64,000 bases of DNA from Oceanispirochaeta sp. (GTDB lineage: Bacteria > Spirochaetota > Spirochaetia > DSM-2461). The stretch covers positions 128,001 to 192,000 of the forward strand of contig CAXXOA010000001.1 of the NCBI GenBank assembly GCA_963666275.2, read 5' to 3'. The notes under the pieces are model-generated. The model was not told where the DNA came from, made no database searches, and saw only the letters and a program-made list of their open reading frames with translations. Below are positions 35,955-64,000 of this stretch, in pieces; within the stretch, counting starts at the first letter, position 1, and the number at the start of each line of letters is the position of its first letter. Both the position numbers and the translations under genes were made by a program.

Positions 35955-36698
35955 TCAGGCAATCAGAATCTCCACACCTGCTTTTTCCAGAAGGGTTCTG
36001 ATCTCCCCGGGAATGTCTTCGTCGGTTATAAGGCAATCCACTTCTTCCGCCCGGCAGTAACGGGAAAGGGCCACTTTGCCGAACTTGCTTGAATCGGTCA
36101 GAATATAGGTTCGGGGGCTGCGGCTAATGATTTCATGGTTGATTTCAGCCCGCATCATGTCCCGGCCTGTAAAGCCGGTTTCCGGTGTAAAACCGTCGAT
36201 TCCTATAAAGGCTTTGGAAAAATTGAGAGCATTCAGGCAGAGTTTGACAAGGTTTCCCACCATACATTCACTTTCGGGCTGATAGATACCGCCCAGGAGA
36301 ATCACCTTTCCCTCCGCTTCCTTCCCGATCTGACGGGCAATGAAGGTATTGGATGTTATAATTGTGGTTCCCGGAATCTTTGCCACTTCCTTGGCAAACA
36401 GGGCATTGATCGAACCCGATTCTATATAGATGATCTCCCCTTCCGAAACATTTTCAGCCGCTTTCCGGGCAATTTGAAGTTTTTTTTCATAGTTGATACC
36501 CATGCGGTGGGAAATATCATCGCTTTCATCCAGTACGGCCCCGCCGTGAACTCTTCTGAGAAAGCCATTATTTTCAAGCATTGTAAGATCCTGTCTCACC
36601 GTGGCCTGGGAAACCCCAAGCTGCTGAGCCAGGGCATTGACGGAGACTTTCCTTCCGTCAGACATGATGCTCAGGATCTGTTTATGTCTTTCATTCAT
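35955..36698 (-). CDS. DeoR/GlpR family regulator
   Basis: R...IL...VS..LA..LGVS.ATVRQDL..LE..G.L.RVHGGA, DSSKFG. Confidence 0.93.
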   Translation of the reverse strand: MNERHKQILSIMSDGRKVSVNALAQQLGVSQATVRQDLTMLENNGFLRRVHGGAVLDESDDISHRMGINYEKKLQIARKAAENVSEGEIIYIESGSINALFAKEVAKIPGTTIITSNTFIARQIGKEAEGKVILLGGIYQPESECMVGNLVKLCLNALNFSKAFIGIDGFTPETGFTGRDMMRAEINHEIISRSPRTYILTDSSKFGKVALSRYCRAEEVDCLITDEDIPGEIRTLLEKAGVEILIA

Positions 36699-36736
36699 AT
36701 TATTACTATTCCTATATTCTTTTTGTTATGTCTCTA

Positions 36737-37216
36737 TCATATCTGTATTGTCTCTTTCTGAGAAGTATTCAGGTAGTCTCTTATCACATCAACGGCAAAA
36801 TCATGATCTTCTTCATCTGTCAGGCCCGATACAGTAAGAGATCCGATGATCCCTCCGGAAGAGAGGAGGATGGGAAAGGCTCCGCCCCAGGGTCTGTACT
36901 CCGTGGGATCCAGGAAATAACTCTCCACATTCTTGCCCCTGCTTTTCATATGACGGGACACATAGAGAGAACTGTGCTGGAAATAGGCACAGATCTTCTG
37001 CTTCCCTTCAATCCAGCGGCTGTTGTCCCGGGTGGTTCCCTCAAGAAAAGCTGTAAACAGAAGCTGTCCGTTTCTATGGATCCCGATAGCTAGAGGAAGG
37101 GATTCTTCGGTTGCCTTTTCTACGGCTGATCTGCCCAGTTCCCAGGCAATGGTGTTGTTGAATTGCGGAAAAGTCAGTTCTTTCTCCTCCTGAAGGAGAG
37201 TAGGGAGGTCTTTCAT
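36737..37216 (-). CDS. GlcG/HbpS-like (DUF336/UPF0303) small protein
   Basis: AWELG, DN..W..K, SS, GGAFPI, VSGL..EEDH. Confidence 0.85.
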   Translation of the reverse strand: MKDLPTLLQEEKELTFPQFNNTIAWELGRSAVEKATEESLPLAIGIHRNGQLLFTAFLEGTTRDNSRWIEGKQKICAYFQHSSLYVSRHMKSRGKNVESYFLDPTEYRPWGGAFPILLSSGGIIGSLTVSGLTDEEDHDFAVDVIRDYLNTSQKETIQI

Positions 37217-37237
37217 GGAAAAACCTTGTCATGCTGT

Positions 37238-37268
37238 TTCAAATGAAGAAAAATGATATTCATATGAA
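37238..37268. promoter_or_regulatory. paired TTCATATGAA-type operator
   Basis: TTCAAATGAA at 37238 and TTCATATGAA at 37259 (21 bp apart), upstream of the UPF0303-DeoR genes. Confidence 0.65.
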
Positions 37269-37289
37269 AATATTATGGAGGGAATTTTT

Positions 37290-38792
37290 CTATCTGTCAA
37301 TAAAATCTCCCAGGCCGGCCCTGCTTATATGATCACCTGCCCGGAGCCCCTGGGCGGCGATTGTCAGAGCGGGATTGACAGCTCCGGAGGTGGGAAAGAA
37401 ACTGGCATCCACCACAAACAGATTGGGATGGTCCCAGCTCCGGCCGAAAGGATCCAGCGGTGCTTCTTCGGCGGTTCTGCCGAAGCGGATGGTTCCGCAC
37501 TGATGCTGAACCGCCCGGATATCCCTTTTATCAACAAAGATCAGAGGGTATCCGGCTTTTCTCATCATCCGGGAGGCTGCTGAAATCAGCTGCCTGTGGG
37601 CTTCTGTATTCCTGTGTTCTACAGAAAGCTGAATCCGGTTGTCCTCCCTGAGGATGATTCTGTTTTCCCTTTCAGGGGGATCTTCGGTCATCAGCCAGAG
37701 ATCAATGCTTCTGGGAGCAATGACGCCGGCCAGGGATTTCAGTATTCCTCCCGATCGGGTCTTCAGCATTTCCCTCTGAATCTTTCCTCTGAGCTGGATA
37801 TTGCCCCAGCCTCTTTCATAGAAGTCATTCAGCCCCAGGGTTTTCTGAAATACAGTCGGGTTTTTTTTCAGAGGGGATAGGGCCAGCATGACCGAATTGA
37901 TATGGCTCATATAGTTCCGGCCCACCAGGTCGGTCGTATTGGCCGCCCCGGATTTATGCTTTTCATCCCGGGACCGGAGCAGGAGGGCGGCCGAATTGAC
38001 TGCCCCAGCGGACACCACTACCAGACGTGCCTTCTGATCGTATTCTTTCCCTTCATGCAGAATCCTGGCTCCCTCTATCAGGTTTTTCTTTCCGGCATAA
38101 AGGAGTTTTACCGCATAGGCCCCTGTGAGCAGTGTCAGGTTGGAGTCTGTTTTCAGATACAGCGGCCGGAGGAACCGGTTCTCTCCATCCCCTTTGGCCC
38201 GTACCATGCAGGGAAATCCGTCGCAGGGACTGCCCTTTCTGCACTTTCCCCCGGGCCCCTGATCAATGGCGATGGGGAGATGAAAAGGGTGAAGCCCCTG
38301 TTTTTCAAGATCTACCGCCAGATCGGTTATAACCTGTTCATGCGAAGCGGCGGTGAAAGGGTATTCCTTCCGGGGCGGCTCTGTGGGATCCTCTCCGGAT
38401 TTTCCCCTGACCCCCAGGAGTTCTTCGGCTTTTTCATACCAGGGGGCGAAGTCGCTGTAGTTCACAGGCCAGTTTCTGAAGTCTGATTCCCGCAGCCTGA
38501 AGGCGGTTCCTCCGAAGAACTTGCTGTTTCCCCCCACGTTGTAGTACATCCTGGGCGTAAAGGACTGCCCCTGCCTGTCGATCCAGATCTCCCGGCTGGC
38601 ATAGCGTCTGTTCTCTACAATCTCATGAACATCCCAGTTCTCTTTTTCCTGCTTTATGAAATCTCCCCGTTCGACCATCAGGACTGAGAGTCCCGAATCC
38701 TTCAGGGCGTAGGCGAGAGCACTTCCGCCCATGCCGGAACCTATGATCAGAACGTCGTAGGTGAAATTTTTATTCCAAATATTTGAATTCAT
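37290..38792 (-). CDS. GMC family FAD oxidoreductase
   Basis: DVLIIGSGMGG, VGGNSKF.G...R, C..FPC, SAGAVNSA.LLLRS, HQCGT, VNPALT. Confidence 0.9.
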   Translation of the reverse strand: MNSNIWNKNFTYDVLIIGSGMGGSALAYALKDSGLSVLMVERGDFIKQEKENWDVHEIVENRRYASREIWIDRQGQSFTPRMYYNVGGNSKFFGGTAFRLRESDFRNWPVNYSDFAPWYEKAEELLGVRGKSGEDPTEPPRKEYPFTAASHEQVITDLAVDLEKQGLHPFHLPIAIDQGPGGKCRKGSPCDGFPCMVRAKGDGENRFLRPLYLKTDSNLTLLTGAYAVKLLYAGKKNLIEGARILHEGKEYDQKARLVVVSAGAVNSAALLLRSRDEKHKSGAANTTDLVGRNYMSHINSVMLALSPLKKNPTVFQKTLGLNDFYERGWGNIQLRGKIQREMLKTRSGGILKSLAGVIAPRSIDLWLMTEDPPERENRIILREDNRIQLSVEHRNTEAHRQLISAASRMMRKAGYPLIFVDKRDIRAVQHQCGTIRFGRTAEEAPLDPFGRSWDHPNLFVVDASFFPTSGAVNPALTIAAQGLRAGDHISRAGLGDFIDR

Positions 38793-38813
38793 AAGTATAA
38801 TTGTATTATATTG

Positions 38814-38845
38814 TCCATATGAAATCAAAAAAACTTTCGAATGAA
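38814..38845. promoter_or_regulatory. paired TTCATATGAA-type operator in the GMC / epimerase divergon
   Basis: TCCATATGAA at 38814 and TTCGAATGAA at 38836. Confidence 0.6.
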
Positions 38846-38862
38846 AGTTAAAAGAGGTTTAT

Positions 38863-39639
38863 ATGGATAAAAGAAGTATAGGTAATGTTACTGATAAAGT
38901 AAAAATCGCTGCCGGGCTTTTCTGGGCGGATTACGGAAATCTGGCGGGGACTGTTAAGGAACTGGAAGAAGCCGGGGCGGACTGGATCCATCTGGAAATG
39001 CGGGACGGACAGTATATGAACTTCAATGCTCCCAGGGGGGGGCTGGATATCCTTATGGGGATCCGTCCCCATACGTCTCTGGAAATTGAGGTGCAGCTGC
39101 AGATGGTCAGGCCGACTTTCGACCTTTACAGGCAATTGAAAGAGGCGGGGGCCGATCTGATCACGATTCCTCTGGAAACGGCTATGGAAAACACAATGCA
39201 GGATATCACCTTTATCAAAGATGCTCTGGGGCTGAAAGCGGGCGTCTGGGGCTGGCAGGGTATGCCTCTGAATTTTTTCTATCAGTACATCCCTTTTGTG
39301 GATATTATTGAATACGAGAGCCGGGCCCGGTTCTGGGTGGATGAAAAGGGAAAGACTCCCCATCTGATCGATCCCATCATGGTGGAAAGCATCGGGGAAC
39401 TGAAAGAGATGATCCGGAAAGCCGGAAGGGAAGGGGAGGTGGACCTGATGGAAGACGGGGGGATCAACGCAAAGAATTCCGCCCCCTTCGCCAGGGCCGG
39501 AATGACTGTGGGGGAGTACTCTTCGGCTCTGCTGAAAGGACCTGACGGTGAAGGTCCGGGAAACCGCTATGTTCCGGGATCCGGCAGGATCACTAGAGCC
39601 GTAAAAGAACTGCGGTCCGCACTGGACCGGGCTGTCTGA
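38863..39639 (+). CDS. divergent ribulose-phosphate 3-epimerase family protein
   Basis: AD...L...V..LE.AGADWIH.E..DG..N, AGAD.IT, G.KAG, DGGIN; metal-binding residues altered. Confidence 0.75.
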   Translation: MDKRSIGNVTDKVKIAAGLFWADYGNLAGTVKELEEAGADWIHLEMRDGQYMNFNAPRGGLDILMGIRPHTSLEIEVQLQMVRPTFDLYRQLKEAGADLITIPLETAMENTMQDITFIKDALGLKAGVWGWQGMPLNFFYQYIPFVDIIEYESRARFWVDEKGKTPHLIDPIMVESIGELKEMIRKAGREGEVDLMEDGGINAKNSAPFARAGMTVGEYSSALLKGPDGEGPGNRYVPGSGRITRAVKELRSALDRAV

Positions 39640-39694: not shown

Positions 39695-40828
39695 ATGGAT
39701 AAAATCGGCGTAGCTATGGCAGGTTTCGGAGGAATCGGCAGAATCCATCTGCTGGCGTACAGGGAGATTCCTCACTTCTATCCGGGAAAGCTTCCGGAAA
39801 TACGGATGACCGGAGTTCTCAGGTCTGGAAAAAGCGCTTCGGTAGAAACAGCCCGGGAAAACGGGTTTGACAGAGGCTACGGCAGTTTCCGGGAAATCCT
39901 GGAGGATCCCGAAGTGGACGTGATTGATCTTGTCACTCCCAACTATCTCCATAAGGATCAGATTATAGCCGCTCTTGAAGGGGGTAAGCACATTCTCTGC
40001 GAAAAACCCCTGGCCCTGAACGCCGCCGAAACGGATGAAATCCTCAGGGCCGCGGAAAAATCCCGGGGAAAAATCGGGATGATTTTCAATTACCGCTTTG
40101 TTCCGGCCATTATGAAAGCCCGGGAACTCATTGACCAGGGCCGTCTGGGAGAGGTCTACTCCTTCCGGGGAGAGTATTTTCATACAGGTTATCAGGACCC
40201 CTCCCGTCCATACAGCTGGCGGATGGATTTTGACAGGTCCGGCGGAGGGGCTCTGGCGGATCTGGGCGTCCATGTTCTGGATCTGCTGAGCTATCTTCTG
40301 GGGGACTTCAAAAGTGTCAGAGCCGATCTGGAAATCTACATAAAAGAGCGGCCCGTCCCGGGACGTGAAGGCGGGATGGCCTCTGTTTCTGTGGACGATG
40401 CGGCCTGGCTTCAGTGCCGGCTGACAGAGGGGGGCCGGGGAAGCGTGGAAGTCTCCCGTTTTGCCACGGGGACTCTGGATGATCTGAATATAACGGTTTA
40501 TGGCAGCAGGGGGTCTTTTCAGTTCCGTCTGATGGATCCGGGCTTTCTCTACTGGTTCGATCAGGACCGGAAGGAGGAGGGGTGGAAACGGCTGGAAACC
40601 CTGCAGCACTACCCGGAGGCGAAAATTCCCAATCCCCGGTCAGTGATCGGCTGGAACCGTTTCCATGCGGAGAACCAGTACAGATTTCTCAAATCAGTTG
40701 TAGAGGGAACTCCCTTCTCCCCGGGAGTGGAAGAGGGAGCCCGGGCCCAGTATGTCCTTGATGCGGCCTACCGGAGTGCTCTTTCGGGCAGGGAGGAGGA
40801 GGTTCAGCAGATCTCTTCTGCCTCGTAG
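39695..40828 (+). CDS. Gfo/Idh/MocA family oxidoreductase
   Basis: GFGGIG..H, TPN..H, GKHILCEKP, NYRF.P, GGGAL.DLG.H..D. Confidence 0.92.
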   Translation: MDKIGVAMAGFGGIGRIHLLAYREIPHFYPGKLPEIRMTGVLRSGKSASVETARENGFDRGYGSFREILEDPEVDVIDLVTPNYLHKDQIIAALEGGKHILCEKPLALNAAETDEILRAAEKSRGKIGMIFNYRFVPAIMKARELIDQGRLGEVYSFRGEYFHTGYQDPSRPYSWRMDFDRSGGGALADLGVHVLDLLSYLLGDFKSVRADLEIYIKERPVPGREGGMASVSVDDAAWLQCRLTEGGRGSVEVSRFATGTLDDLNITVYGSRGSFQFRLMDPGFLYWFDQDRKEEGWKRLETLQHYPEAKIPNPRSVIGWNRFHAENQYRFLKSVVEGTPFSPGVEEGARAQYVLDAAYRSALSGREEEVQQISSAS

Positions 40829-41112: not shown

Positions 41113-41193
41113 TGTATTTTTTTCTCCTTTTCCTATGACAGTATAATCTAAGTAATCGCATCAATAATATCTGTGTATACGACAATAATAATC

Positions 41194-41224
41194 TTCATAT
41201 GAAAAATAAAAGTTTACAAGTGAA
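41194..41224. promoter_or_regulatory. TTCATATGAA operator upstream of the sugar ABC operon
   Basis: Perfect TTCATATGAA at 41194; weaker TACAAGTGAA 21 bp downstream. Confidence 0.6.
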
Positions 41225-41298: not shown

Positions 41299-42588
41299 AT
41301 GAAAAAGGTTTCTATCAGTCTGTTGGCAGTGCTGCTTATGTCATCTCTGATGCTTTTTGCAGGCGGTCAGAAAGAGGGCGGAGCCGGCGAAGAAGCTATT
41401 GACGGAAGCAATGTAGAAGTTCTGCACTGGTGGACCTCAGGCAGCGAAGCGGCTGCTTTGAATGTATTGAAAGAAGATCTTGAGAAAAAAGGAATCACCT
41501 GGACCGATTCTCCCGTAGCCGGAGGCGGTGGAGATCAGGCAATGACAGTTCTTCGTTCCAGAGCGACAGCAGGGAATCCTCCCGTCGCTGTTCAGATGCT
41601 GGGATTTGATATTATCGACTGGGCCGAGCTGGGGTTCCTGGCTGACCTGAATGATGTGGCTAAAGAAGAAAACTGGGATGCCGTTGTTCCTGACGCTCTC
41701 AAATTTTTCTCCAAATACAATGGTGTTTGGGTTGCCGCTCCTGTGAATGTTCACTCTACCAACTGGGTATGGGCCAACAAAGAGATCATGGACAGTCTGA
41801 ATATTTCCGAACCCAAAAACTGGGACGAATTTATGGCTGCCATGGAAAAAGTAAAAGCCGCCGGATACACAGCCCTGGCTCATGGCGGACAGGCCTGGCA
41901 GGACGGAACCATGTTCGACGGTGTTGTTGTTTCTACAGGCGGACCTGAATTCTACAAGAAAACCATGATTGATCTGGACGATGCGGCGCTTCGTTCCGAC
42001 ACAATGGTGGAAGTTTTCAGCAGAATGCGTCAGCTGAGATCCTTTGTGGATGACAACTTCAGCGGAAGGGACTGGAACCTGGCTTCTGCCATGGTTATCG
42101 AAGGAAAGGCCGCTTTCCAGATTATGGGTGACTGGGCAAAAGGCGAGTTTAAAAACGCCGGTCTGGAACCGGGAAAAGACTTCTATTTCTTCCGTGTCCC
42201 CGGATCACAGGGCACTGTTACTTTCAACTCCGACCAGTTTGTTATGTTCGATGTGGATCCTGCCTACCAGGATGCCCAGAAAGAGCTTGCAAAATCCATT
42301 ATGCAGCCCAGTTTTCAGATTGCCTTCAACCTGGTTAAGGGATCTGTTCCCGCCAGAACCGACATCTCTGATGCGGAGTTTGATGCGGCCGGTAAAAAAG
42401 GTATGAAAGACCTGGCTGAAGCCTCCAGAAACGGTACCCTTTTCGGTTCCATGGCTCACGGACACGCTGTCCCCGCCGGACTGAAACAGGCTATGTTTGA
42501 TGTCATTACCGCTCATTTCAATGATGAATCCTACAGCGACGAACAGGCCGCCCAGGATTTGGCAGATGCGGTTGCTGCTGCAAAATAA
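41299..42588 (+). CDS. sugar ABC transporter substrate-binding protein (glucose/mannose GtsA-like)
   Basis: [42 protein letters not shown]. Confidence 0.9.
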
Positions 42589-42680: not shown

Positions 42681-43565
42681 ATGACACCACACAGCAAGTG
42701 GCGATTGACGAAGGATGATGTAACCGCCCGGTTCGTGCTGATGCCGACCCTTATTCTTACCTTTGTATTTGTTTATGCCTTCATCATTTTTACCATCTAT
42801 ATTTCATTTACCAACTCACGTTTAATGCCCTCTTACGACTGGGTAGGATTTCAGAATTATGTTAAAATGTTCAAACTTCCCCACTGGCATACAGCTCTGA
42901 AGAATTTTGCGATCTTCAGTGTTCTCTATATAACTATCTCCACCTTTCTGGGGCTTTTCCTGGCCATCCTGGTGGACTGGAGCAAACTGGGGGAACGGCT
43001 GTTCCGCCCTATCTACCTTTATCCCATGGCTATCTCCTTTATCGTTACCGGTACCGCATGGAAGTGGTTCCTGGATCCCGGAATCGGTCTGGAACAGATC
43101 ATGCATACCTGGGGTTTTACAAACTTTACATTCAACTGGATAAAAAGTGCCGATTATGCCATCTATACCATTGTGATCGCCGCGGTCTGGCAGGTGACCG
43201 GTTATGTGATGACCATGTTCCTGGCGGGGCTGAGGGCTGTCAATCATGCCACCATAGAGTCGGCGGTTGTCGACGGTGCGGGTATGTGGACACTTTACCG
43301 GAGGATTATCATCCCTCAGCTGGGGCCTTCTTTCACATCAGTCTTTGTTATTCTGGGGCATATGGCGATCAAGTCCTATGACCTTGTCATTGCATTGACC
43401 AACGGAGGGCCGGGCAGGGCGACAGAGCTGCCGTCAACATTCATGTACTCCTATACTTTTACACGAAATCAGATGGGTGTCGGAGCCGGTTCTGCAGTAT
43501 TTATGCTGGTACTCTTCGCCATCATTATCATTCCCTACATCAGAACCATAGTGAAGGATCAGTAA
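42681..43565 (+). CDS. sugar ABC permease
   Basis: YPMAISFIVTG.AWKW, ESA.VDGA EAA-like motif, T.GGPG. Confidence 0.92.
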   Translation: MTPHSKWRLTKDDVTARFVLMPTLILTFVFVYAFIIFTIYISFTNSRLMPSYDWVGFQNYVKMFKLPHWHTALKNFAIFSVLYITISTFLGLFLAILVDWSKLGERLFRPIYLYPMAISFIVTGTAWKWFLDPGIGLEQIMHTWGFTNFTFNWIKSADYAIYTIVIAAVWQVTGYVMTMFLAGLRAVNHATIESAVVDGAGMWTLYRRIIIPQLGPSFTSVFVILGHMAIKSYDLVIALTNGGPGRATELPSTFMYSYTFTRNQMGVGAGSAVFMLVLFAIIIIPYIRTIVKDQ

Positions 43566-43567: not shown

Positions 43568-44440
43568 ATGACGATTAAAGATACAATGCGAATGAAAAAA
43601 CAGACAGGGTATGTGGTAACTGTGCTGATGGTACTGTTTGCCGTCTTTTTTCTGACTCCCCTGTATGTGATGGTTGTGAATTCCTTTAAACCTCTGGCAG
43701 AGATCCGCGGGGGCAATATGCTTGCCCTTCCCGAGGATTTTCAGATCATTCCCTGGCAGAAAGCCTGGTCGGAAGCTCAGATCGGTGTGCAGGCCACGGG
43801 TTTGAGACCCTATTTTTTCAACTCTATTAAAATGGTTATTCCCGCGGTTTTCTTCTCCACGCTGCTGGGGTCTCTCAGCGGATTTGTCCTGTCCAAATGG
43901 CATTATCCCGGGGATAAATTCCTTTTCGGCCTGATCCTCTTCGGATGTTTCATTCCCTTTCAGATCGTTCTGATACCCACCGCCCGTGTCCTGGGATCTC
44001 TGCATCTGGCAGGAACCACTTCGGGTCTTGTGCTGGTCCATACTGTCTACGGTCTGGGATTTACCACCCTGTTCTTCAAAAATACCTACGACAGTTTTCC
44101 CGCAGAGCTGGTTCAGTCCGCCCAGGTGGACGGGGCGCATTTTTTCAAGATTTTCATGGATATCATCCTGCCCAATTCCACTCCTATCATTGTGGTGTCG
44201 GTCATCTGGCAGACGACAAATATCTGGAATGACTTCCTCTTCGGTGTGTCCTTCGGAGATGCCGCCTCTCAGCCTATGACTGTGGCTCTGAACAACCTTG
44301 TCAGCTCCTCGACCGGTGTGAAGGAGTACAATGTTCACTTTGCCGGTGCTCTGATGGCTGCCCTCCCGACTCTGGCGATCTACCTGGTTTCGGGTAGGTA
44401 CTTTGTCAGGGGACTCATGTCTGGTTCTGTAAAAGGTTAA
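43568..44440 (+). CDS. sugar ABC permease
   Basis: PLYVM...SFK, FIPFQ, EL..SA.VDGA, IWNDFLFG, GL..G.VKG. Confidence 0.92.
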   Translation: MTIKDTMRMKKQTGYVVTVLMVLFAVFFLTPLYVMVVNSFKPLAEIRGGNMLALPEDFQIIPWQKAWSEAQIGVQATGLRPYFFNSIKMVIPAVFFSTLLGSLSGFVLSKWHYPGDKFLFGLILFGCFIPFQIVLIPTARVLGSLHLAGTTSGLVLVHTVYGLGFTTLFFKNTYDSFPAELVQSAQVDGAHFFKIFMDIILPNSTPIIVVSVIWQTTNIWNDFLFGVSFGDAASQPMTVALNNLVSSSTGVKEYNVHFAGALMAALPTLAIYLVSGRYFVRGLMSGSVKG

Positions 44441-44452: not shown

Positions 44453-45415
44453 ATGGAAAAGCTTCTCTGCGGTGTCGACCTGGGAGGCACCAAACTGGCG
44501 GCCGCTCTCTTCTCTCAGGAGGGGAGTCTGGTCGCCAGTGAAATTGTCTACGATCATCATAAATCCACCAGTGATGAGATTCTCCTTGCGGTGGTGGATC
44601 TGCTGAATACTCTTCTCAGGAACAACTCCTGTACTCCCGGGGATCTACTGGGAATAGGTGTGGCTCTGGCGGGACATGTCAATTTTAAAGAAGGGAAAAT
44701 TATCACCACAAGCAACTTTCCCATAACCATACGGGATTTTCCTCTGGTGGATAAACTGAAAAGCCATTTTCCCGGCCTCAAAATTGTTATGGACAACGAT
44801 GCCAATGCCCAGGCCTACGGGGAGTTCAAATACGGTGCTGCCAGAGGGTATAACTCATCTGTTTTTGTCACGGTCAGTACAGGAATCGGCGGAGGCATTA
44901 TCCTGGACGGAAAAATGGTCCGGGGCCGCAGCGGTACCGCCGGAGAAGTGGGGCACTCCATCATTGACTACAACTCGGATATAAAGTGCACCTGCGGTAA
45001 CTACGGCTGTTCCATGGCCCTGGCGTCGGGGCTTTTTTTTCCCAGCCTCTACAGAATGCATCTCCGCAAGGGGATGAAAAGTACCATTGGAGTCACCGAA
45101 GAGAGCGCCGCCGGCATGGACGGCAAAAAGATTGAAGACGGAATGAAAGCGGGAGATCCTATCTGCCGGAAAATCGTGGAAGATTCCGCCACAGCCGTGG
45201 GAGTCTCTCTCTTTAATATCCATCAGATGCTCAATCCCGAACTGGTTGTTCTGGGGGGAGGGCTCATGGCCTTCGGTGAAGAGTACTTCCAAAGCATCCG
45301 CCGGGAATTCCTCTCTCATACCCATGAAATGATGATTCAGGAGATGGAGATCAAGCTGGCCGAGACGGGGGCGAATGCGGGGCTTCTGGGAGCGGCGGCG
45401 CTGCTTCTGGAATAG
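44453..45415 (+). CDS. ROK family sugar kinase
   Basis: GVDLGGTK, NDANA.A.GE, TGIGGG, AGEVGH, C.CG..GC, GGG, AG.LGAA; no N-terminal HTH. Confidence 0.9.
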   Translation: MEKLLCGVDLGGTKLAAALFSQEGSLVASEIVYDHHKSTSDEILLAVVDLLNTLLRNNSCTPGDLLGIGVALAGHVNFKEGKIITTSNFPITIRDFPLVDKLKSHFPGLKIVMDNDANAQAYGEFKYGAARGYNSSVFVTVSTGIGGGIILDGKMVRGRSGTAGEVGHSIIDYNSDIKCTCGNYGCSMALASGLFFPSLYRMHLRKGMKSTIGVTEESAAGMDGKKIEDGMKAGDPICRKIVEDSATAVGVSLFNIHQMLNPELVVLGGGLMAFGEEYFQSIRREFLSHTHEMMIQEMEIKLAETGANAGLLGAAALLLE

Positions 45416-46375: not shown

Positions 46376-46401
46376 TCAGATCTCTCCTGTTTATTTTCCG
46401 G

Positions 46402-47433: not shown

Positions 47434-47485
47434 GATGTTTCCTTGATTACTACTGTATCTTTCTTTTTCAAGTATGACAAGAAAA

Positions 47486-47627: not shown

Positions 47628-47659
47628 AAAATTAATCACCACAAAAAAAGGAGTTTCTT

Positions 47660-52296: not shown

Positions 52297-52309
52297 AAAA
52301 GGAGTTTCT

Positions 52310-52624: not shown

Positions 52625-52639
52625 CAGAAGGAGGAATCA

Positions 52640-53614: not shown

Positions 53615-53670
53615 GATCCCATTCAACAGAACAGAATAAAAACGGTCTCCCCCGGCAAAAAGGGGAGACC

Positions 53671-54143: not shown

Positions 54144-55013
54144 TTAGCCCATTTTCAAATTATATTCCCTGACGCAGCGGCTTATGCCCTCCATGGTTTC
54201 GGAGAACTTTATGTCTCCGGACTGGATCAGAGAGGTATCCAGCCTGGCATCCCGGGGATGATCTGAGTATTTTTCCCTGTCCGGTATAATCAGTTCCCCG
54301 ATCCGGTTTCCCAGTCCCATCTCTCTGAGGATATGACAGACTACGTCGTATCTGTTATTGTCATTTTTTGCTCCCGTATGATAGAGGCCGGGAGCCAGGT
54401 CCAGGATCCTGTCAAACTGATCTATGAGCTCATTCACATAGGTCAGTCCCCTGTATTCGTTGACAGGAACTTTGAAGGGTTCCCCTTTCATCACGGACTT
54501 CACTGTATCCCAGAAAATATTGTTCACTACCGGCCGGTTCCTGTCGGGAACTCCGAACATCCAGGTAAACCGGAGAATGATCAGGTTTTCAAGAACTTCC
54601 CGGATCTTTCCTTCGGCTTCGTATTTGTTTTTACCGTACATTGTGTCGGGATCGGGGATATCCGTCTCCTTATAGGGGCCGCTTTCCCTGTTGCCGTTAA
54701 ATACCTGCTCTGTGCTGAGAAAGATCATCCGGGAACCGTACTCTCTGCAGGCCCTGGCAATATTGACGGCTCCGTCCACATTGATGGCATGGCATTTTTC
54801 CGGGTTCTTATTACAGAAATCCGTCAGGGCGATGGCCGCAGCATGGATCACGTAGTCGGGTTTGAAAAGCTTGAAGGCGTTCATGACTTTGTCTTCTTCC
54901 AGGATATCCAGTTCCTGTACATCCGTGGACAGTATGGAGAATTTCCCCTGATAGGTTTCCCGGAGCCGGGTACCTATAAAACCATTGCCGCCTGTAAGCA
55001 GAACTCTTTTCAT
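54144..55013 (-). CDS. RmlD-like extended SDR (NAD(P)-dependent sugar reductase/epimerase)
   Basis: TGGNGFIG, PD.VIHAAA, STEQVF.G, YG.NK, R.TW. Confidence 0.88.
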   Translation of the reverse strand: MKRVLLTGGNGFIGTRLRETYQGKFSILSTDVQELDILEEDKVMNAFKLFKPDYVIHAAAIALTDFCNKNPEKCHAINVDGAVNIARACREYGSRMIFLSTEQVFNGNRESGPYKETDIPDPDTMYGKNKYEAEGKIREVLENLIILRFTWMFGVPDRNRPVVNNIFWDTVKSVMKGEPFKVPVNEYRGLTYVNELIDQFDRILDLAPGLYHTGAKNDNNRYDVVCHILREMGLGNRIGELIIPDREKYSDHPRDARLDTSLIQSGDIKFSETMEGISRCVREYNLKMG

Positions 55014-55093
55014 GTTTCACTCCTATTGGCTATTAAAATTTTTCATATTTTCGATTATTATACATTATCTGAAGATATAGCGATAGATGTAAT

Positions 55094-55124
55094 TTCATAT
55101 GATAATATATAATTATCATATGAA
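55094..55124. promoter_or_regulatory. paired TTCATATGAA-type operator in the SDR / GRE divergon
   Basis: TTCATATGAT at 55094 and ATCATATGAA at 55115 (21 bp apart). Confidence 0.65.
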
Positions 55125-55154: not shown

Positions 55155-57524
55155 ATGGAACAGTTAGATCATCTCATGTCTCTCTCTCTGGATGAGGAGA
55201 TCCTGAACTATAAGAAAAAAATTATGGAGGAGGAGCGGATTGTTTCGGTCGATCAGGCCCTCAGTATAACCCGTTCCTACAGGGAAAATCCCCATGATTC
55301 TGTGGTCCTGCAAAGGGCGAAGGCCTTTGCTCTGTCTCTGAAAGAACTGCCTATCCGGATAGATCCGGAAGAAAAGCTGGTTGGAAACAGAACACCCGGG
55401 ATCCGAAGCGGCGTGATCTTTCCGGAAGCCGGACTGTCCTGGCTTGAGAAGGAGTTTGATATTCTGGATACAAGGGACCAGGACAAATTCCAGAAATCCG
55501 AGAAAGAACGTAAAGCCCTATTTGAAGAGCTGATTCCCTTCTGGCAGGGCAGAACTCTGGAGGACTATATCGGCCGGGAGCAGGGCGGTCCCATTAAAGA
55601 GATTGGCCGGGTTGTTAAAATCAATCAGAAGGACCATGCCCAGGGGCATATTGCTCCGGACTGTGTGAGCTGGCTTCATAACGGACCAGCTGAACTGGCG
55701 GCCAAAGCCCGGAAGCTTAAACTGGCGGCTCCCCGGGATAAACAGGACTTCTATGAAGCCCTGGAGACAGCCCTGGACGGGGCATCTTCTTTTATCCTGC
55801 GCTATGGAGACCTGGCGGAAGAGCTGAGTTCCCGGGAGGAGTATAGAAAGGCATCTGATGAGATGAGGGAGATCAGCAGAATCTGCCGGAAGCTGGCCGT
55901 GGAACCAGCCGGAACTTTTCATGAGGCCCTTCAGTCCCTCTGGTTTCTGTTTGTTCTGCTTCAGGCCGAATCCAATGCGTCCTCCTTCTCTCCGGGAAGG
56001 CTGGATCAGTACCTCTACCCCTATCTGGAAAAAGACCTTGCTTCGGGTGTTCTGACACTTGAGGCTGCGCAGATCCTTCTGGAGCACCTCTGGCTGAGCT
56101 TTAATAAAATTGTCTATCTCCGGAACTCCGAAGGGGCCCGGTATTTTGCAGGATTCCCCATAGGATTCAATGTGGCCGTAGGCGGGCAGGACAGGGAGGG
56201 GCGGGATGCGTCGAACCTCCTGTCCTGGATGTGTCTGAAAGCCCAGGAGCATATCGGGCTGCCCCAGCCCAATCTCTCTGTCCGGCTCCACAGGAACAGC
56301 CCCGATGATTTTGTGGACTACTGCTCCTTTGTGATAGGCAAAGGCAGCGGTATGCCCCAGATCTTCAATGACGAAAGTATCATTCCCTCCCTTGAAAACG
56401 TGGGGATCAGTCACGATGACGCCATGAATTACGCGGTGGTAGGCTGTGTTGAACTGACAACTCCCGGGAACAATCTGGGCTGGAGCGATGCGGCCATGTT
56501 CAATCTTGTAAAGGCGCTGGAGATGACCCTGAACAACGGCGTCTGCCTTCAGACGGGAGAACAGATCGGTCCGGGCTTCGGGTCTCTGGAAGAGTATAAA
56601 ACCTTTGAGGACCTGGAAGAGGCCTTCCGGAAACAGATGGACTACTACATTGATAGAATGATCGGTATCTGTGATTTTGTTGACCGGGCCCATGCGCAGA
56701 TCCTTCCCTCTCCCTTTCTCTCTTCGGTGATCGATAACTGCATGGAAAAGGGACTGGACGTTACCGCCGGAGGAGCCCTGTATAACCTGTCGGGGATCCA
56801 GCTGATTCAGGTGGCCAATGTGGCAGACTCTCTGGCTGTAATAAAAAAGCTTATCTTTGAGGATAAGTCTCTTACTCCCCGGGAGCTCATGGAGGCACTG
56901 AAATCCGACTGGGAGGGAAAGGAAAAACTCAGACAGAGGGTCCTCCATCACGTTCCCAAATACGGTAATGATGTGGAGTGGGTCGATCAGCTGGGAAACA
57001 AGTGGGTTACCTACTTTGCGGCTAGACTGAAAGAGTTCCGCAATGCCCGGGGCGGCCCCTATCACACGGGTCTGTATACGGTTTCAGCCCATGTGCCCAT
57101 GGGGAAGAATGTGGGAGCCTCTCCGGATGGCCGGTATTCCGGATCCCCCCTGGCTGACGGGGGAATCTCCGCCATGTACGGAAGGGACGAAAAAGGTCCC
57201 ACAGCCCTGTTGAAATCTGTCAGCCGGGTCAGTTCTCTTCCTGCCAGCAACGGCACCCTGCTGAACATGAAATTCCTTCCGGACTTCTTCCGTTCTGCCG
57301 AAGACAGAAAGAAATTTTCGGCCTTGCTGAAGAGTTTTGTCCGGTTGAAAATCCATCATGTCCAGTTCAATGTGGTCCGGAAAGAGGATCTCCTGGCAGC
57401 CCAGGAGAATCCGGAAGACTACAGGGGACTTACAATAAGGGTGGCCGGTTATACCGCCTATTTTACAGAACTGGCCAGGGACCTGCAGGATGAAATCATC
57501 GCCCGGACCGGTTACGGAGCCTGA
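55155..57524 (+). CDS. pflD: glycyl radical enzyme, PflD-like
   Basis: Cys loop VVGCVE, glycyl loop IRVAGYTAYF; K.NQ.D..QGHI, ESNASS.S.GR.DQY, RYFAGFP, YTVSAHVP.G as recalled for the PflD clade; single Cys, so not PFL. Confidence 0.8.
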   Translation: MEQLDHLMSLSLDEEILNYKKKIMEEERIVSVDQALSITRSYRENPHDSVVLQRAKAFALSLKELPIRIDPEEKLVGNRTPGIRSGVIFPEAGLSWLEKEFDILDTRDQDKFQKSEKERKALFEELIPFWQGRTLEDYIGREQGGPIKEIGRVVKINQKDHAQGHIAPDCVSWLHNGPAELAAKARKLKLAAPRDKQDFYEALETALDGASSFILRYGDLAEELSSREEYRKASDEMREISRICRKLAVEPAGTFHEALQSLWFLFVLLQAESNASSFSPGRLDQYLYPYLEKDLASGVLTLEAAQILLEHLWLSFNKIVYLRNSEGARYFAGFPIGFNVAVGGQDREGRDASNLLSWMCLKAQEHIGLPQPNLSVRLHRNSPDDFVDYCSFVIGKGSGMPQIFNDESIIPSLENVGISHDDAMNYAVVGCVELTTPGNNLGWSDAAMFNLVKALEMTLNNGVCLQTGEQIGPGFGSLEEYKTFEDLEEAFRKQMDYYIDRMIGICDFVDRAHAQILPSPFLSSVIDNCMEKGLDVTAGGALYNLSGIQLIQVANVADSLAVIKKLIFEDKSLTPRELMEALKSDWEGKEKLRQRVLHHVPKYGNDVEWVDQLGNKWVTYFAARLKEFRNARGGPYHTGLYTVSAHVPMGKNVGASPDGRYSGSPLADGGISAMYGRDEKGPTALLKSVSRVSSLPASNGTLLNMKFLPDFFRSAEDRKKFSALLKSFVRLKIHHVQFNVVRKEDLLAAQENPEDYRGLTIRVAGYTAYFTELARDLQDEIIARTGYGA

Positions 57525-57535: not shown

Positions 57536-58435
57536 ATGAATGCTGTAATTTTTGATATCAAACGCTTTGCTGTCCATGACGGTCCGGGAATCCGGAGCTC
57601 GGTTTTTTTAAAGGGCTGCCCCCTGAACTGCAAGTGGTGTCATAATCCCGAAGGAATTTCCGGAGCCATTCAGCTCTGGTATTTCAAAGGGCGCTGCCTT
57701 AAATGCGGTGACTGTGTAAAGGTCTGCCCGGAAGGGGCTTTGAGTCTGGATAAGAAAACAGGCATCTCCATTGACAGGAATCTCTGCACCGACTGCGGAG
57801 CCTGCACCAAAGCCTGCCCCACAGGTGCCCTGACGTTTATAGGGTCTGAAGTTTCCATAGATACAGTCGTGGAGGAACTCCTGCTGGACAGGGTTTTCTA
57901 TGAGGAGTCGGGTGGGGGAATTACCCTGACAGGAGGAGAGCCTCTGGCTCAGGGGAAAGCCGCTCTTGAGATCCTCAGGCGAATGAAAAAAGAGGGGATC
58001 GCCACGGCTGTTGAAACCAGCCTGCAGATTCCCCCAGAGACCCTGAAAGCAGCGACGGAGGTCACGGACTTTTTTATGTGTGATCTGAAAATCATGGATC
58101 CGGAAAGGCATAAAAAAGCTATAGGCCGGAATAATATCAGGATCCTTGAAAATCTGAAATGGCTTGCTGCTTCAGAGGCTCAGATCCTGGTGAGAGTACC
58201 TCTTATTCCGGGATTTACAGACAGCCGGGAGAATCTGAACGGCATCGCTGAGTTTCTGGACTCCCTTGAAAGGGCTCTTCCTGTGGAACTGATGAACTTC
58301 AATCCCCTGGCAAAGGAAAAGTTCCGGGTCCTGGGGCGGCCCTATGAACCGGCGGGAGCGGATTCTCCCTACAGCCCAGAGGATATGGATGAGTTCCGGG
58401 ATATTTTCCTATCCATGGGACTGGAAGTGAAGTAA
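57536..58435 (+). CDS. glycyl radical enzyme activating enzyme (radical SAM + ferredoxin insert)
   Basis: HDGPGIR..VFLKGCPLNCKWCHNPE, two CxxCxxCxxxCP motifs, GG.T..GGE. Confidence 0.93.
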   Translation: MNAVIFDIKRFAVHDGPGIRSSVFLKGCPLNCKWCHNPEGISGAIQLWYFKGRCLKCGDCVKVCPEGALSLDKKTGISIDRNLCTDCGACTKACPTGALTFIGSEVSIDTVVEELLLDRVFYEESGGGITLTGGEPLAQGKAALEILRRMKKEGIATAVETSLQIPPETLKAATEVTDFFMCDLKIMDPERHKKAIGRNNIRILENLKWLAASEAQILVRVPLIPGFTDSRENLNGIAEFLDSLERALPVELMNFNPLAKEKFRVLGRPYEPAGADSPYSPEDMDEFRDIFLSMGLEVK

Positions 58436-60224: not shown

Positions 60225-60378
60225 TTTCTGTTTATTACCTCACTACTAAGTGTAGAGTATGCCTGAGGGGATTGCCATGTCCGGAAAGGATAACTCAGGG
60301 GACTGAACAGCTTTTTTCCTTTTTCAGATTTCACCTCATACGTTTTTCCACTATAATCAAATTTTACAGGAGGCTGGA

Positions 60379-61191: not shown

Positions 61192-61197
61192 GTGCTC

Positions 61198-61815
61198 TTA
61201 TACCTTAATTAAAAGATATACTCCCAGACAGGCAAATACCGGGGAAGCAAAATATTTCTGTAAATGTGTTTTTTTTCCTCTTTTCAATGCTTTGACAATC
61301 TTTTCAGAAAGAGTTGCATAAAGCAGATCAAATAGAAATCCTGTTAGTACAAGAATTAAACCCAGAAGGAAAAACTGGTGAATCAGTGGTATTGACTGGG
61401 AGTAGAGAAACTGGGGCAAAAGAATGCTGCAGAATATTAAAGCTTTTGGATTCAGAATGTTGGTAATGAAGCCATGAAAAATGAATCTTTCTTTTTGGGA
61501 TTCAATTGTGGTTTCAGACTTCTCAAGACGGGCACTTATAGAAAATTGATAAGCCATCCAGAAGAGATACAGAGCTCCTGCTATTCTCACAAAATTATAT
61601 AAGACTGAAACACGGTCAAAGAGGGTCGCCATCCCAAGTCCCGAAGCGAAAACATGAATGAAACGGGCACAGCCAATTCCTATGGCAGTGGATATCCCAG
61701 GTCCTCTACCTCTTTCAGATGAAACTGTCATTACAAGGACCATATCCGGTCCCGGTGTAAGATAGGCTGTAATTAAAGCGGTAAGAAAAAGAAAAAGGGA
61801 CTTCCATTCGATCAT
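61198..61815 (-). CDS. LysE/RhtB family exporter
   Basis: TPGPD, GA.YL, GF.TN.LNPK. Confidence 0.9.
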   Translation of the reverse strand: MIEWKSLFLFLTALITAYLTPGPDMVLVMTVSSERGRGPGISTAIGIGCARFIHVFASGLGMATLFDRVSVLYNFVRIAGALYLFWMAYQFSISARLEKSETTIESQKERFIFHGFITNILNPKALIFCSILLPQFLYSQSIPLIHQFFLLGLILVLTGFLFDLLYATLSEKIVKALKRGKKTHLQKYFASPVFACLGVYLLIKV

Positions 61816-61937
61816 TTTATTTTTTTCACTCCATTCCAGAAACTAATCAAATTATAGCTGTCCTGGAAAGAAATATCCTTGCTATCTTTTCTTCTGGAGT
61901 TTAAAGTTTGAGAAGAAAACACTAACAAATACATAAT

Positions 61938-62435
61938 ATGGAGAAGAATATGCCACAAGAATCTGTTGATGAGGTTGATGTGACTCTTTTGAGATTTCTC
62001 CAGGAAAATGGGAGGGCTTCTAATGTTCAGATTGCAGACCATCTGAACTTAAGTGAAACTCCAAGTTGGAGACGATTGAAAAGACTTGAAACGGAAAAAA
62101 TTATAGAAGGATATCATGCCACCTTGAACAGGGAGAAACTGGGATTTGATATTCTTGCTTTTGTACAGATCATGTTTTCTGTACACACAGACGATACACC
62201 CAGCCGGTTTGAGGACGCTGTCCAGGAAATACCGGAGATTCTATCCTGTTTTAATGTTACAGGTGATGCGGACTACATGCTTGTTATAGTTGCCGAAAAT
62301 CTCAAATCCTATGAAGCCCTCCTGCGCAAAAAGATCCGCTGTCTGCCGGGAGTCAGATCCCTCAAAACAATCATTAGTATGAGAGAAGTGAAGCATTCAC
62401 AGAATTTACCTCTCTATCCAATCATCTCACCTTAA
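61938..62435 (+). CDS. Lrp/AsnC family regulator
   Basis: D..D..LL..LQ.NGR, LS.TP..RR.KRLE...II.GY, VTG..DY. Confidence 0.92.
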   Translation: MEKNMPQESVDEVDVTLLRFLQENGRASNVQIADHLNLSETPSWRRLKRLETEKIIEGYHATLNREKLGFDILAFVQIMFSVHTDDTPSRFEDAVQEIPEILSCFNVTGDADYMLVIVAENLKSYEALLRKKIRCLPGVRSLKTIISMREVKHSQNLPLYPIISP

Positions 62436-62520
62436 TCACCCAGGCAGGAGAGAACAAAAGAGAGCCGAAACGGTAACGTTTTTCCCAGGAAAGAAGACTG
62501 AAGTGCGGCTGGCTGATTGC

Positions 62521-64000
62521 CTAAAGCTTCTGCTCTGTCCTGGCGATGATATCGTTCTGGGTTTCCAGGGAGAGATTGGTAAAGAACGCTGAATACCCGG
62601 CCACCCTGACCACCAGGTCATGGTACTCTTCGGGCTTCTCCTGAGCTGCCAGGAGGGTTTCTTTATCCACAATGTTGTACTGGATATGCCAGCCTTTCAG
62701 ATCATCGAAGAAGCTGTGAAGCATGCCTGCCAGTTTCTCTTTTTTCTCCCGGTTTACAAGGACTGCGGGTGAGAGTTTCTGGTTCAGAAGGACTCCACCC
62801 AGGATCTTTTCTGTGGGCAGTTTGCTTATGCTTTTCATTACCGCTGTAGGGCCTTTCAGGTCCGCTCCCGAAGAGGGAGAGGCTCCTTCCGCCAGGGGCT
62901 GCCAGGCTTTTCTTCCGTCAGGAGTGGCGGGGACCACAGATCCGGCGGGAACATTCCCGGAAATGCTGGAGGTTCCCGCATAGTACCGGCATCCTATGGA
63001 ACCGCTTCCCCGGCGGATCGTATATTTGTCACTGATTTCATCTATGTAGCTGTTATAGGCCTGGACCAGAAGCTGATCCACATAATCTTCGTCGTTGCCG
63101 TATTTGGGAGCGTAGTTTTTCAGAATCAGCCGGAGTTTTTCTCCTGCCGGGCCGGCAAAGTCCGATGCCATGGCTTCCATCAGCTCCTGAGGACTGATCC
63201 TCTTCTCTTCAAAGACAAGTTTTTTAATGGCAGCCAGAGAGTCTCCCAGATTGGCGATCCCCACCTGTAGTCCCGATTCAAAATCGTATTTGCTGCCCCC
63301 CTCGTGGATGGTCAGTCCGGTCTCCAGGCAGTTGTCGGTAAAGGCGGAACAGAGAATGTCCGGGGCTTCATCCCGGAGAACAATGTCTATGGCTGCATCG
63401 ATGGCGATTCCCGCCCGGGCATAGAATCTGACCTGATCATCCCAGGCTTCCATGACCTGTGAGAAGTCGGTAAAGTCGGTGAGCTTTCCTTTCCCTTTAT
63501 GAAACTGCCGACCGCTTACAGGGTCTACCCCGTCATTGATGGCCGCCAGAAAAACCCTCATAAAATTGAGAAAGTGCTTGCCCGTACAGCGGTAACCCCA
63601 TTTGCCGGGAACAGCCGTTTCGATACAGCCGATAGCCGAATAGTCCCAGGCGTCCTCTTCTTCCACGCCCAGTTTCCTGAAGGAGGGAATTACGATGCTG
63701 TCGTTATTGAAGGCAGGCATACCGAAGCCCAGCTGAATCACATTGATGCATTCCTGCAGAAACTCCGGGCTGATTCCCGGATGAAAGCGGACGGACAGGT
63801 TGGGCTGGGTGAGCTTTGTCTCTCCCACAGATTTCAGAATGAGAAAACTCAGATCATTGACCGCATCCGAACCGTCTCTGAGCTGGCCACCGATAGTCAC
63901 ATTCTGATAAAGAGGTCCTCCCGCAGAAAAACGGGTGTGCGACCAGGAGCGGATTTTTTTGATACTCACCAGTTTGAGCCAGGTATTTTCCAGAACTTCC
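62521..64000 (-). CDS. ybiW: glycyl radical enzyme, YbiW-like (5' part outside window)
   Basis: RS..H...SAG.PLYQNVTIGGQ, AIGCIETAV.GKWGYRCTG, YAGTSSIS, VRVAGYSAFF; frame stays open to the window edge. Confidence 0.8.
   Translation of the reverse strand, partial: EVLENTWLKLVSIKKIRSWSHTRFSAGGPLYQNVTIGGQLRDGSDAVNDLSFLILKSVGETKLTQPNLSVRFHPGISPEFLQECINVIQLGFGMPAFNNDSIVIPSFRKLGVEEEDAWDYSAIGCIETAVPGKWGYRCTGKHFLNFMRVFLAAINDGVDPVSGRQFHKGKGKLTDFTDFSQVMEAWDDQVRFYARAGIAIDAAIDIVLRDEAPDILCSAFTDNCLETGLTIHEGGSKYDFESGLQVGIANLGDSLAAIKKLVFEEKRISPQELMEAMASDFAGPAGEKLRLILKNYAPKYGNDEDYVDQLLVQAYNSYIDEISDKYTIRRGSGSIGCRYYAGTSSISGNVPAGSVVPATPDGRKAWQPLAEGASPSSGADLKGPTAVMKSISKLPTEKILGGVLLNQKLSPAVLVNREKKEKLAGMLHSFFDDLKGWHIQYNIVDKETLLAAQEKPEEYHDLVVRVAGYSAFFTNLSLETQNDIIARTEQKL

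Follow-up and report, generated by a model that had tools for sequence, protein, structure and literature searches.

Organization of the gene cluster

The window analyzed here is a stretch of 64,000 nucleotides (G000:C1:128001-192000) from the genome of an Oceanispirochaeta sp. (G000; 5.27 Mb, 97% complete). Its positions 35955 to 64000 carry a gene cluster that probably encodes a variant of anhydroglycolysis independent of the phosphotransferase system (PTS) and placed under a YciT-type regulon, acting on substrates deduced from the genes. The nearest named relatives of the cluster genes belong to Spirochaetota, Oceanispirochaeta among them.

The cluster is sequentially composed of the features listed in Table 1. 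An earlier note on this DNA had listed two glycyl radical enzymes (GREs), an activase, an ABC transporter followed by a ROK kinase, Gfo/Idh/MocA, GMC and RmlD-like oxidoreductases, an epimerase and a DeoR repressor, and all of these are present. The activases number two rather than one: GRE2 runs 908 bp past the end of the window and has its own activase at 64911-65798 (G000:C1:192911-193798; window numbering is continued beyond 64000). The sequence past 64000 supplies the second activase and also a second DeoR gene. A PTS-fsa module is absent there; activase 2, DeoR2 and an ABC cluster with a psicose epimerase come next. The note also treated 35955-64000 as one system. Its core genes do recur together, but roughly 13 kb in between does not belong with them, and the HbpS/GlcG-like gene, a member of the cluster that occurs in 8 of 37 related stretches, had been overlooked. 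The region is predicted to be a single regulon in which passenger genes take up about 13 kb and which extends past the window end.

For comparison, 301 Spirochaetia genomes, each at least 90% complete, were surveyed. A YbiW-like gene, defined by at least 50% identity to GRE2, occurs in 44 of them including G000. Surroundings were taken for 37 of the 43 other YbiW genomes, and neighborhood counts cover 12 kb around the YbiW-like gene; many contigs are short. The core genes recur with reshuffled order in many Spirochaetia families, so the cluster is more than a chance association. G, C and L numbers below denote genomes, contigs and loci of this analysis.

Table 1. Features of the cluster, in window numbering
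Feature	Position	Strand	Basis or remark
DeoR1, YciT-like repressor	35955..36698	-	NF040887 YciT best NCBIfam match
HbpS/GlcG-like heme-binding-family protein	36737..37216	-	PF03928
Predicted operator core, 1 mismatch, before HbpS-DeoR1	37258..37269	.	rank 3 in genome, 18.7 bits
GMC flavoprotein, 500 aa from ATG 38792	37290..38792	-	FAD glucose/fructose dehydrogenase large-subunit type, Cys-rich motif
Predicted operator TTTCGAATGAAA, divergent GMC/RPE promoter	38835..38846	.	rank 1, 24.5 bits
Divergent RPE-fold enzyme	38863..39639	+	H43, E45, Q78, D198 at metal-ligand positions; DGG, SS motifs kept
Gfo/Idh/MocA oxidoreductase	39695..40828	+	levoglucosan/scyllo-inositol dehydrogenase subfamily, not 1,5-anhydrofructose reductase
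Predicted operator core, 1 mismatch, before binding-protein gene	41193..41204	.	rank 13, 15.9 bits
GtsA/glucose-type sugar-binding protein	41299..42588	+	4r2b 544 bits, 5dvf 377 bits
Two CUT1 ABC permeases	42681..43565 and 43568..44440	+	no ATPase gene in cluster
ROK kinase, predicted 1,5-anhydrohexitol kinase	44453..45415	+	Met at E/D position of CxCGxxGCx(E/D)
Passenger block 1	45419-54123		tocopherol-cyclase-like gene, LacI, RhaS-type ABC transporter, rhamnose mutarotase, xylose-isomerase-like gene, 150-aa open reading frame
RmlD-like extended short-chain dehydrogenase/reductase	54144..55013	-	YxxxK in sequence
Predicted operator core, 1 mismatch, divergent RmlD/GRE1 promoter	55093..55104	.	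rank 20, 15.3 bits
GRE1, PflD-sister glycyl radical enzyme	55155..57524	+	C431-V-E433, G765
Activase 1, radical SAM with ferredoxin insert	57536..58435	+	TIGR02494 above cut-off
Passenger block 2	58449-62435		GGDEF, ZIP, LysE, AsnC genes
GRE2, YbiW-clade glycyl radical enzyme	62521..64908 (window holds 62521..64000)	-	C428-I-E430, G771
Activase 2	64911..65798, beyond window	-	TIGR02494 above cut-off; 41.5% to E. coli YbiY
Predicted operator, activase 2/DeoR2	65835..65846, beyond window	.	rank 7, 18.0 bits
DeoR2, second YciT-like repressor	65929..66672, beyond window	+	37% to E. coli YciT

The two glycyl radical enzymes

GRE1 and GRE2 each contain one Cys-x-Glu motif and one glycyl motif, the combination described for YbiW and PflD in PMC13450708. 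GRE2 shares 53.6% identity with E. coli YbiW, and its matches to 6xs4 and to the YbiW structures 8id7 and 8yjn reach about 925 bits. GRE2 nests with E. coli YbiW in a quick IQ-TREE phylogeny of 38 rows (SH-aLRT 93) and in a FastTree phylogeny of 143 rows (support 0.99), the latter built from 16 chosen rows plus 127 of 150 representatives, namely those with 720-900 residues. GRE2 very probably converts 1,5-anhydroglucitol 6-phosphate (AG6P) to 1-deoxyfructose-6-phosphate. Like the 1,5-anhydroglucitol branch of E. coli (ybiY-ybiW/fsaA), G000 possesses a YbiW-clade GRE with the CxE motif and its own activase. The G000 system differs in its additional GMC, Gfo, RPE-like, RmlD-like and HbpS-like genes, and in a PflD-like GRE placed under the same predicted operator; ybiU is not found in G000 and YbiV-like matches are only unlinked.

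The top structural match of GRE1 is E. coli PflD (634 bits), and the two fall in one clade with a support of 1.0 among the 143 GREs and of 84 in the quick IQ-TREE phylogeny. GRE1 also keeps the SNASS, GFP and YTVSAH motifs of PflD, the enzyme of the 1,5-anhydromannitol branch in E. coli (ptsA-fsaB-gldA and frwCB-pflDC-frwD). The earlier designation as PflD- and YbiW-like GREs thus stands at the level of clades. At three motif positions, GRE1 departs from both solved PflDs.

The GRE1 clade carries DHAQGH, GWSDA and Gln where the solved PflDs carry DKGQGH, GLHDI and Gly, corresponding to K152>H161, H432>S444 and G526>Q552 (E. coli PflD > GRE1 numbering). The PflD membership motifs DKGQGH, GLHD and QGIG are accordingly not kept. 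GWSDA and Gln are present in all 13 spirochaete GRE1 rows and in three Chloroflexota-type rows, and DHAQGH in all of these but one (G005, DHPQGH); the corresponding residues in E. coli PflD and 8id0 are GLHDI and Gly. The changed positions presumably line the pocket, as in other GREs. In addition, GRE1 is just 41.5% identical to E. coli PflD and fails the PflD model NF007437, with 733 bits against a cut-off of 1109. GRE1 is therefore regarded as a member of a sister subfamily of PflD, and lyase activity on 1,5-anhydromannitol 6-phosphate (AM6P) is a candidate function only. There is about an even chance that GRE1 acts on AM6P; otherwise it may act on another stereoisomer. GRE2 keeps most YbiW motifs, but it too shows changes near the pocket, HTRFSAGG and TGKHF instead of HSKASAGS and TGMSF.

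The GRE1 clade is found in 32 of the 301 genomes, and 28 of the 32 also contain YbiW, against a base rate of 44 in 301. One GRE1 ortholog (G005:C61:4742-7102) has an internal TAG stop. Four more GREs are encoded in G000, at C3:56302, C2:422003, C3:145544 and C2:88070, of which the first two are related.

ABC transport in place of the PTS

Anhydroglycolysis in E. coli relies on PTS uptake and aldolase cleavage (PMC13450708 and PMC12441222). By contrast, an ABC transporter and a ROK kinase would replace PTS uptake and phosphorylation in G000. The genome contains enzyme I of the PTS but no EIIC match to PF02378, PF03609, PF03611 or PF13303, and it lacks the Frw PTS, FsaB and GldA of the E. coli pflD system. 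Within 12 kb of the YbiW-like genes of the 37 relatives, YciT-like DeoR genes were found in 34, ROK genes in 29 and ABC genes in 25, and homologs of FsaA/B, FrwB/C or GldA in none. A tight operon in L165 comprises a binding protein, two permeases, HbpS, YbiW, ROK and DeoR. The transporter type differs among relatives, being either GtsABC-type or ribose-type. These counts support the earlier proposal that ABC import and a ROK kinase substitute for the PTS: both accompany YbiW and no PTS does. The statement that the window holds no PTS permease or aldolase is likewise confirmed for the region.

The binding protein is close to the glucose binders 4r2b and 5dvf, and also matched 2b3b, titled glucose-binding protein. 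The cluster has no gene for an ABC ATPase; MalK/UgpC-type ATPases are encoded elsewhere in the genome.

Just ahead of the cluster, 34295-35476 encodes a fusion of HTH_17 and PTS EIIA_2 domains, in a genome with enzyme I but no detected EIIC; the fusion is likely regulatory. G003 possesses a unit not found in G000 (L005:15702 to L006:1226): directly before RmlD/GRE1 lie genes for another ABC transporter, which is of the ribose type and has an operator site, and for an additional ROK (62%).

A ROK kinase without the acid of the signature

The ROK signature is CxCGxxGCx(E/D), and its acid is among the sugar-coordinating residues (PMC5458393). In NagK, the aspartate D187 engages the sugar 1-OH (PMC10031466). 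By alignment through E. coli NagK E186, D187 would map to the E/D position of the signature. The ROK of the window carries Met at this position and so departs from the signature. All 39 rows of at least 33% identity have M, I or F there (a few rows represent one locus fetched twice). G000 has five further ROKs that bear the motif; four of them have E, as do the three solved glucokinases shown, and E or D stands in 9 of 12 parsed distant ROK rows. Since a 1,5-anhydrohexitol has no 1-OH, loss of the acid predicted to bind it is the expected change. The enzyme is predicted to be tailored to a sugar without an anomeric hydroxyl, that is, to be a 1,5-anhydrohexitol kinase. Like the ROK glucokinases, NagK and NanK that work with GtsABC-type import, it keeps the DxGGT, ND and ExGH motifs and the Zn-binding cysteines; the substitution after GCx, shared by the whole family of this ROK, sets it apart from them.

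Other ROK-related genes occur in relatives. A protein of about 610 residues without Pfam match, bearing a ROK-like DVGGT motif, follows the GRE1 activase in 7 of the 37 relatives (L016:9514-11346, L018, L161, L164, L171, L174 and L177) and has no match in G000. In G016, G020, G275 and G248 (L024, L020, L175 and L180), a different ROK without the Zn cysteines adjoins the GRE1 activase; its ExGH histidine is replaced by Trp in three of the four.

A shared predicted operator

DeoR1 and DeoR2 are 46% and 37% identical to E. coli YciT. Deletion of yciT changes expression by log2 values of 7.0 for ybiU, 2.2 for ybiV, 3.5 for ybiW and 1.8 for fsaA, identifying YciT as a repressor (PMC8464067), and YciT binds the ybiYW promoter (bioRxiv 10.1101/2025.05.13.653802).

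The palindrome TTTC-RWWY-GAAA was found in the intergenic DNA of the window. It has two perfect matches in the 45 kb examined here (0.1 expected) and 12 in the genome, and also matches the E. coli ybiY/fsaA spacer. The 12-bp core of TTTCGAATGAAA is identical to that of the ybiY/fsaA site. With an operator matrix built from 27 sites, all of them in relatives, five cluster promoters take ranks 1, 3, 7, 13 and 20 in 5.27 Mb; in this order, they are the promoters of GMC/RPE, HbpS-DeoR1, activase 2/DeoR2, the binding protein and RmlD/GRE1. Across 12 kb of E. coli DNA around the ybi genes, the three top scores of 24.9, 22.1 and 20.3 bits lie before ybiY/fsaA, ybiU and ybiV, respectively. The E. coli pflD region reaches a maximum of 5.5 bits and is without the palindrome. 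A site of at least 15 bits is present in 27 of the 37 related stretches (many of them in the training set) versus 10.5% of random 25-kb stretches. Before the RPE-like gene, a site of at least 14 bits occurs in 6 of 22 non-training loci (L012 being taken as training).

The blocks of the cluster are predicted to form a single YciT-type regulon, which resembles the E. coli ybi/YciT system in both its YciT-like repressors and the palindrome core before its operons. Twenty other high-scoring sites in G000 are mostly inside genes or before unrelated genes, and no outlying regulon member, such as an aldolase, was found among them. The strict palindrome pattern has six matches at five places outside the cluster in five relatives.

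RmlD-like, Gfo, GMC and RPE-like proteins

The RmlD-like gene (at least 45% identity) occurs in 23 of the 301 genomes, all with both GREs (GRE1 is full-length in 22 and cut by a contig end in one), and is missing from all 15 YbiW genomes without detected GRE1. This distribution makes a link to the GRE1 substrate likely. The RmlD-like protein scores 185 bits against 9gpi/9gsc, the RmlD structures from Trichomonas vaginalis, and no more than 112 bits against bacterial RmlDs, hinting that the T. vaginalis protein may belong to the same family. A shikimate-dehydrogenase-like gene recurs beside RmlD/YbiW (L016:17592-18455, L161:7400-8263, L162, L163 and L174), and its product is a candidate for the missing reductase.

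The RPE-like protein belongs to a family of at least 609 proteins, some of them named as Chloroflexota. The predicted model folds into an RPE barrel (TM 0.77 by query, pLDDT 94). As in RPE and allulose-6-phosphate 3-epimerase (1tqj, 2fli and 3ct7), the His and Asp ligand positions, the DGG motif and the phosphate-loop Ser are kept. Identity to these enzymes is only about 25%, however, and an Asp and a His are replaced by Glu45 and Gln78, so that the His-Asp-His-Asp metal and catalytic set of RPE/AlsE is not found. The family has its own invariant residues instead, with H43, E45, Q78 and D198 conserved in 76 of 76 aligned sequences. A separate RPE homolog is encoded elsewhere in G000.

The RPE-like gene is present in 28 of the 301 genomes, 22 of them with YbiW, and its usual neighbors are Gfo, GMC and ROK. 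Among 27 metagenome loci of at least 6 kb (of 73), Gfo occurs in 25, a Zn-dependent alcohol dehydrogenase (Zn-ADH) in 14, GMC in 13, ROK in 12, a GRE1-like gene in 5 and a YbiW-like gene in 1. The GMC protein resembles the large subunits of FAD-dependent glucose and fructose dehydrogenases. The Gfo protein matches levoglucosan dehydrogenase 6a3f over its full length with 215 bits. It belongs to the same Gfo/Idh/MocA family as the Sinorhizobium 1,5-anhydro-D-fructose reductase (2glx and 4koa), but its match to 2glx is of 94 bits, covers residues 48-206 only and does not indicate an ortholog. An assignment as 1,5-anhydrofructose reductase is thus rejected. The levoglucosan dehydrogenase model NF052479 is the best match of the Gfo protein, though it is failed with 243 versus 650 bits. 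GH4 glycosidases, a family that works via 3-keto intermediates, are encoded beside this tier of genes in some relatives (L043:12106-14675, followed by a DUF4432 gene, and L045:8417-9802).

The simplest reading is that GMC, Gfo and the RPE-like protein constitute a mobile module for redox and epimerization at C2/C3 that was recruited into the regulon. That these enzymes funnel 1,5-anhydrofructose into both GREs, as had been proposed, is one reading only: many YbiW genomes do without the tier, and three genomes that have it encode no PFL-like GRE.

Proposed pathway and alternatives

In the proposed pathway, 1,5-anhydroglucitol, and probably a second 1,5-anhydrohexitol as well, would enter through the ABC transporter and be phosphorylated at C6 by the ROK kinase with ATP. 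The two oxygen-sensitive GREs would then open the ring to a 1-deoxyketose 6-phosphate, with GRE2 yielding 1-deoxyfructose-6-phosphate from AG6P. The RmlD-like reductase may make or interconvert the GRE1 substrate. For GMC, Gfo and the RPE-like protein, the most likely role, put forward tentatively, is that of an optional tier of C2/C3 oxidation, reduction and epimerization that widens the range of anhydro-sugars. Cleavage of 1-deoxyfructose-6-phosphate would not be by a canonical fructose-6-phosphate aldolase (FSA); by default, it would fall to a housekeeping enzyme of the transaldolase family or another aldolase-type enzyme.

For the last step, G000 differs in gene content from E. coli, as neither a canonical FSA nor GldA is detected. 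A search with FsaA returned nothing in G000 at E<=1e-25, and GldA has no tblastn match. The three TAL_FSA members of G000 (C2:1887831, C2:2196024 and C1:223083) are not near the cluster; they have Gln at FSA Q59 and Met or Phe in place of Tyr131, and are of neither classic type. An FSA/TalC-type match exists in just 9 of the 44 YbiW genomes; in the other 35, therefore, another enzyme would handle 1-deoxyfructose-6-phosphate.

This gap lends some appeal to an alternative within the same regulon, in which the RPE-like enzyme, together with Gfo, GMC or the Zn-dehydrogenase, acts downstream on 1-deoxyfructose-6-phosphate by metal-enediolate, retro-aldol or epimerization chemistry in place of FsaA/B and GldA. 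The RPE-like protein keeps phosphate-site motifs with changed metal ligands, its gene stands behind the best-scoring operator, and the Zn-ADH gene of the metagenome loci lies mostly directly before it, echoing gldA-fsaB. We nonetheless consider this alternative unlikely. Of the 22 YbiW genomes without the RPE-like gene, 20 are also without an FSA/TalC-type match, so the two are not complementary, and in three genomes that carry the RPE-like gene there is no GRE that could supply the substrate. A simple replacement of FSA by the RPE-like gene is rejected on account of this distribution across the 301 genomes.

Those three genomes (G034, G067 and G140) bear on another alternative, that the tier is an oxygen-tolerant, non-radical route parallel to the GREs. 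It would begin with oxidation at C2 or C3 and formation of an enediolate; a 1-deoxy-2,3-diulose phosphate would then arise by elimination of the ring oxygen and be reduced. In GRE-less G034 and G140, the tier is accompanied by a binding protein of 66-68% identity, and levoglucosan dehydrogenase, the closest match of Gfo, starts a route of oxidation, elimination, hydration and reduction (PMC7676230). However, the ROK of G034 and G140, like that of most Chloroflexota-type loci, retains an acid where the 1-OH would bind, with HDAK in place of NDAN, and no operator precedes the RPE-like gene in G034, G067 or G140. An acid-bearing ROK and the lack of an operator point to a reducing sugar in the GRE-less loci rather than a 1,5-anhydro sugar, and the non-radical route is accordingly very unlikely for the cluster studied here.

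Equally improbable is that the blocks are unrelated neighbors, a glucose ABC transporter with glucokinase and a rare-sugar unit beside two GREs fed otherwise: the glucose type of the binding protein, the passenger genes between blocks, and G012 and G017, where YbiW has only DeoR nearby, would fit this, but the shared predicted operator, tight operons such as L165, a linkage that is reshuffled yet retained, the motif change in ROK and the missing EIIC all oppose it.

Several observations weigh against the PTS-independent pathway itself, in addition to the divergence of GRE1 from PflD and the changes near the GRE2 pocket. G000 offers no canonical FSA or GldA route for 1-deoxyfructose-6-phosphate. 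PF02378 EIIC scores above cut-off somewhere in 14 of the 44 YbiW genomes, in G018 at a distance of about 15 kb from YbiW. Of the 44 YbiW genomes, 22 have no RPE-like gene, and the gene is present in the three genomes without a PFL-like GRE. The genomes and loci compared are relatives of one another and so not independent. On the regulatory side, NF040887 YciT is the best family match of DeoR1 and DeoR2 but scores 251 and 207 bits, under the cut-off of 450. The operator ranking in G000 is partly circular because the palindrome seed was read from the window, leaving the E. coli result as the sole independent test. Provided that the coordinate offset between the E. coli genome versions is 777, the predicted E. 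coli sites lie about 150 and 100 bp from the ChIP-exo peaks of YciT. The published peaks span 858455-858488 and 862873-862900 of NC_000913.2. A reporter study sets the ybiY site about 100 bases closer to the gene (bioRxiv 10.1101/2025.05.13.653802).

Wider context

Ma et al. (JACS, 2024, doi 10.1021/jacs.4c07718) reportedly described anhydroglycolysis in gut bacteria that use the PTS. No description of an ABC/ROK version was found in the literature searched, which did not cover Ma et al. 2024. If the proposed pathway is true, 44 of the 301 sampled Spirochaetia genomes hold a version fed by a kinase, which also has relatives in Chloroflexota-type loci, and the turnover of 1,5-anhydro-sugars, breakdown products of starch and glycogen, would reach into environmental anaerobes. 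It is possible, if doubtful, that a wider network for anhydro-sugars operates in Spirochaetes and Chloroflexota. Such a network would combine a YciT operator conserved to E. coli, a dedicated 1-deoxy-sugar ROK family, a PflD-sister GRE opening a different 1,5-anhydrohexitol phosphate, and an RPE-fold family (>600 members) that catalyzes C-O or C-C reactions of a new kind, with a 1-deoxy or anhydro ketose phosphate as substrate, and replaces FSA or the radical step. Assayable targets are the ROK family with its substrate-diagnostic substitution, the PflD-sister GRE with its altered pocket, the orphan RPE-fold family, and the candidate YciT operator with its likely natural inducer.

GH31 enzymes can release 1,5-anhydrofructose, as indicated by reference titles in PMC12441222. 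G000 contains one GH31 gene (G000:C2:1806631-1807578), unlinked to the cluster.

Passenger genes and neighboring sequences

The passenger genes are seldom shared with relatives. LysE and AsnC occur in none of the 37 related stretches, and each of the remaining passengers tested occurs in one. The block of LacI, RhaS-type ABC transporter, RhaM and isomerase recurs only in G003, and the tocopherol-cyclase-like, 150-aa, GGDEF and ZIP genes only in G004. The 75 highest operator scores include no site of a passenger gene. In G004 (L002:17843 to L003:1667), three open reading frames that by eye resemble carotenoid desaturase/synthase take the place of the rhamnose-type block between ROK and RmlD.

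Beyond the window, a 131-bp copy of the DeoR2 3' end, 91.6% identical, is found at G000:C1:203861-203989 (75861-75989 in window numbering). The copy flanks a cluster of LacI, ABC, short-chain dehydrogenase/reductase, alcohol dehydrogenase, psicose 3-epimerase and FGGY genes at 66980-75823, which suggests that this cluster was inserted into or beside DeoR2.

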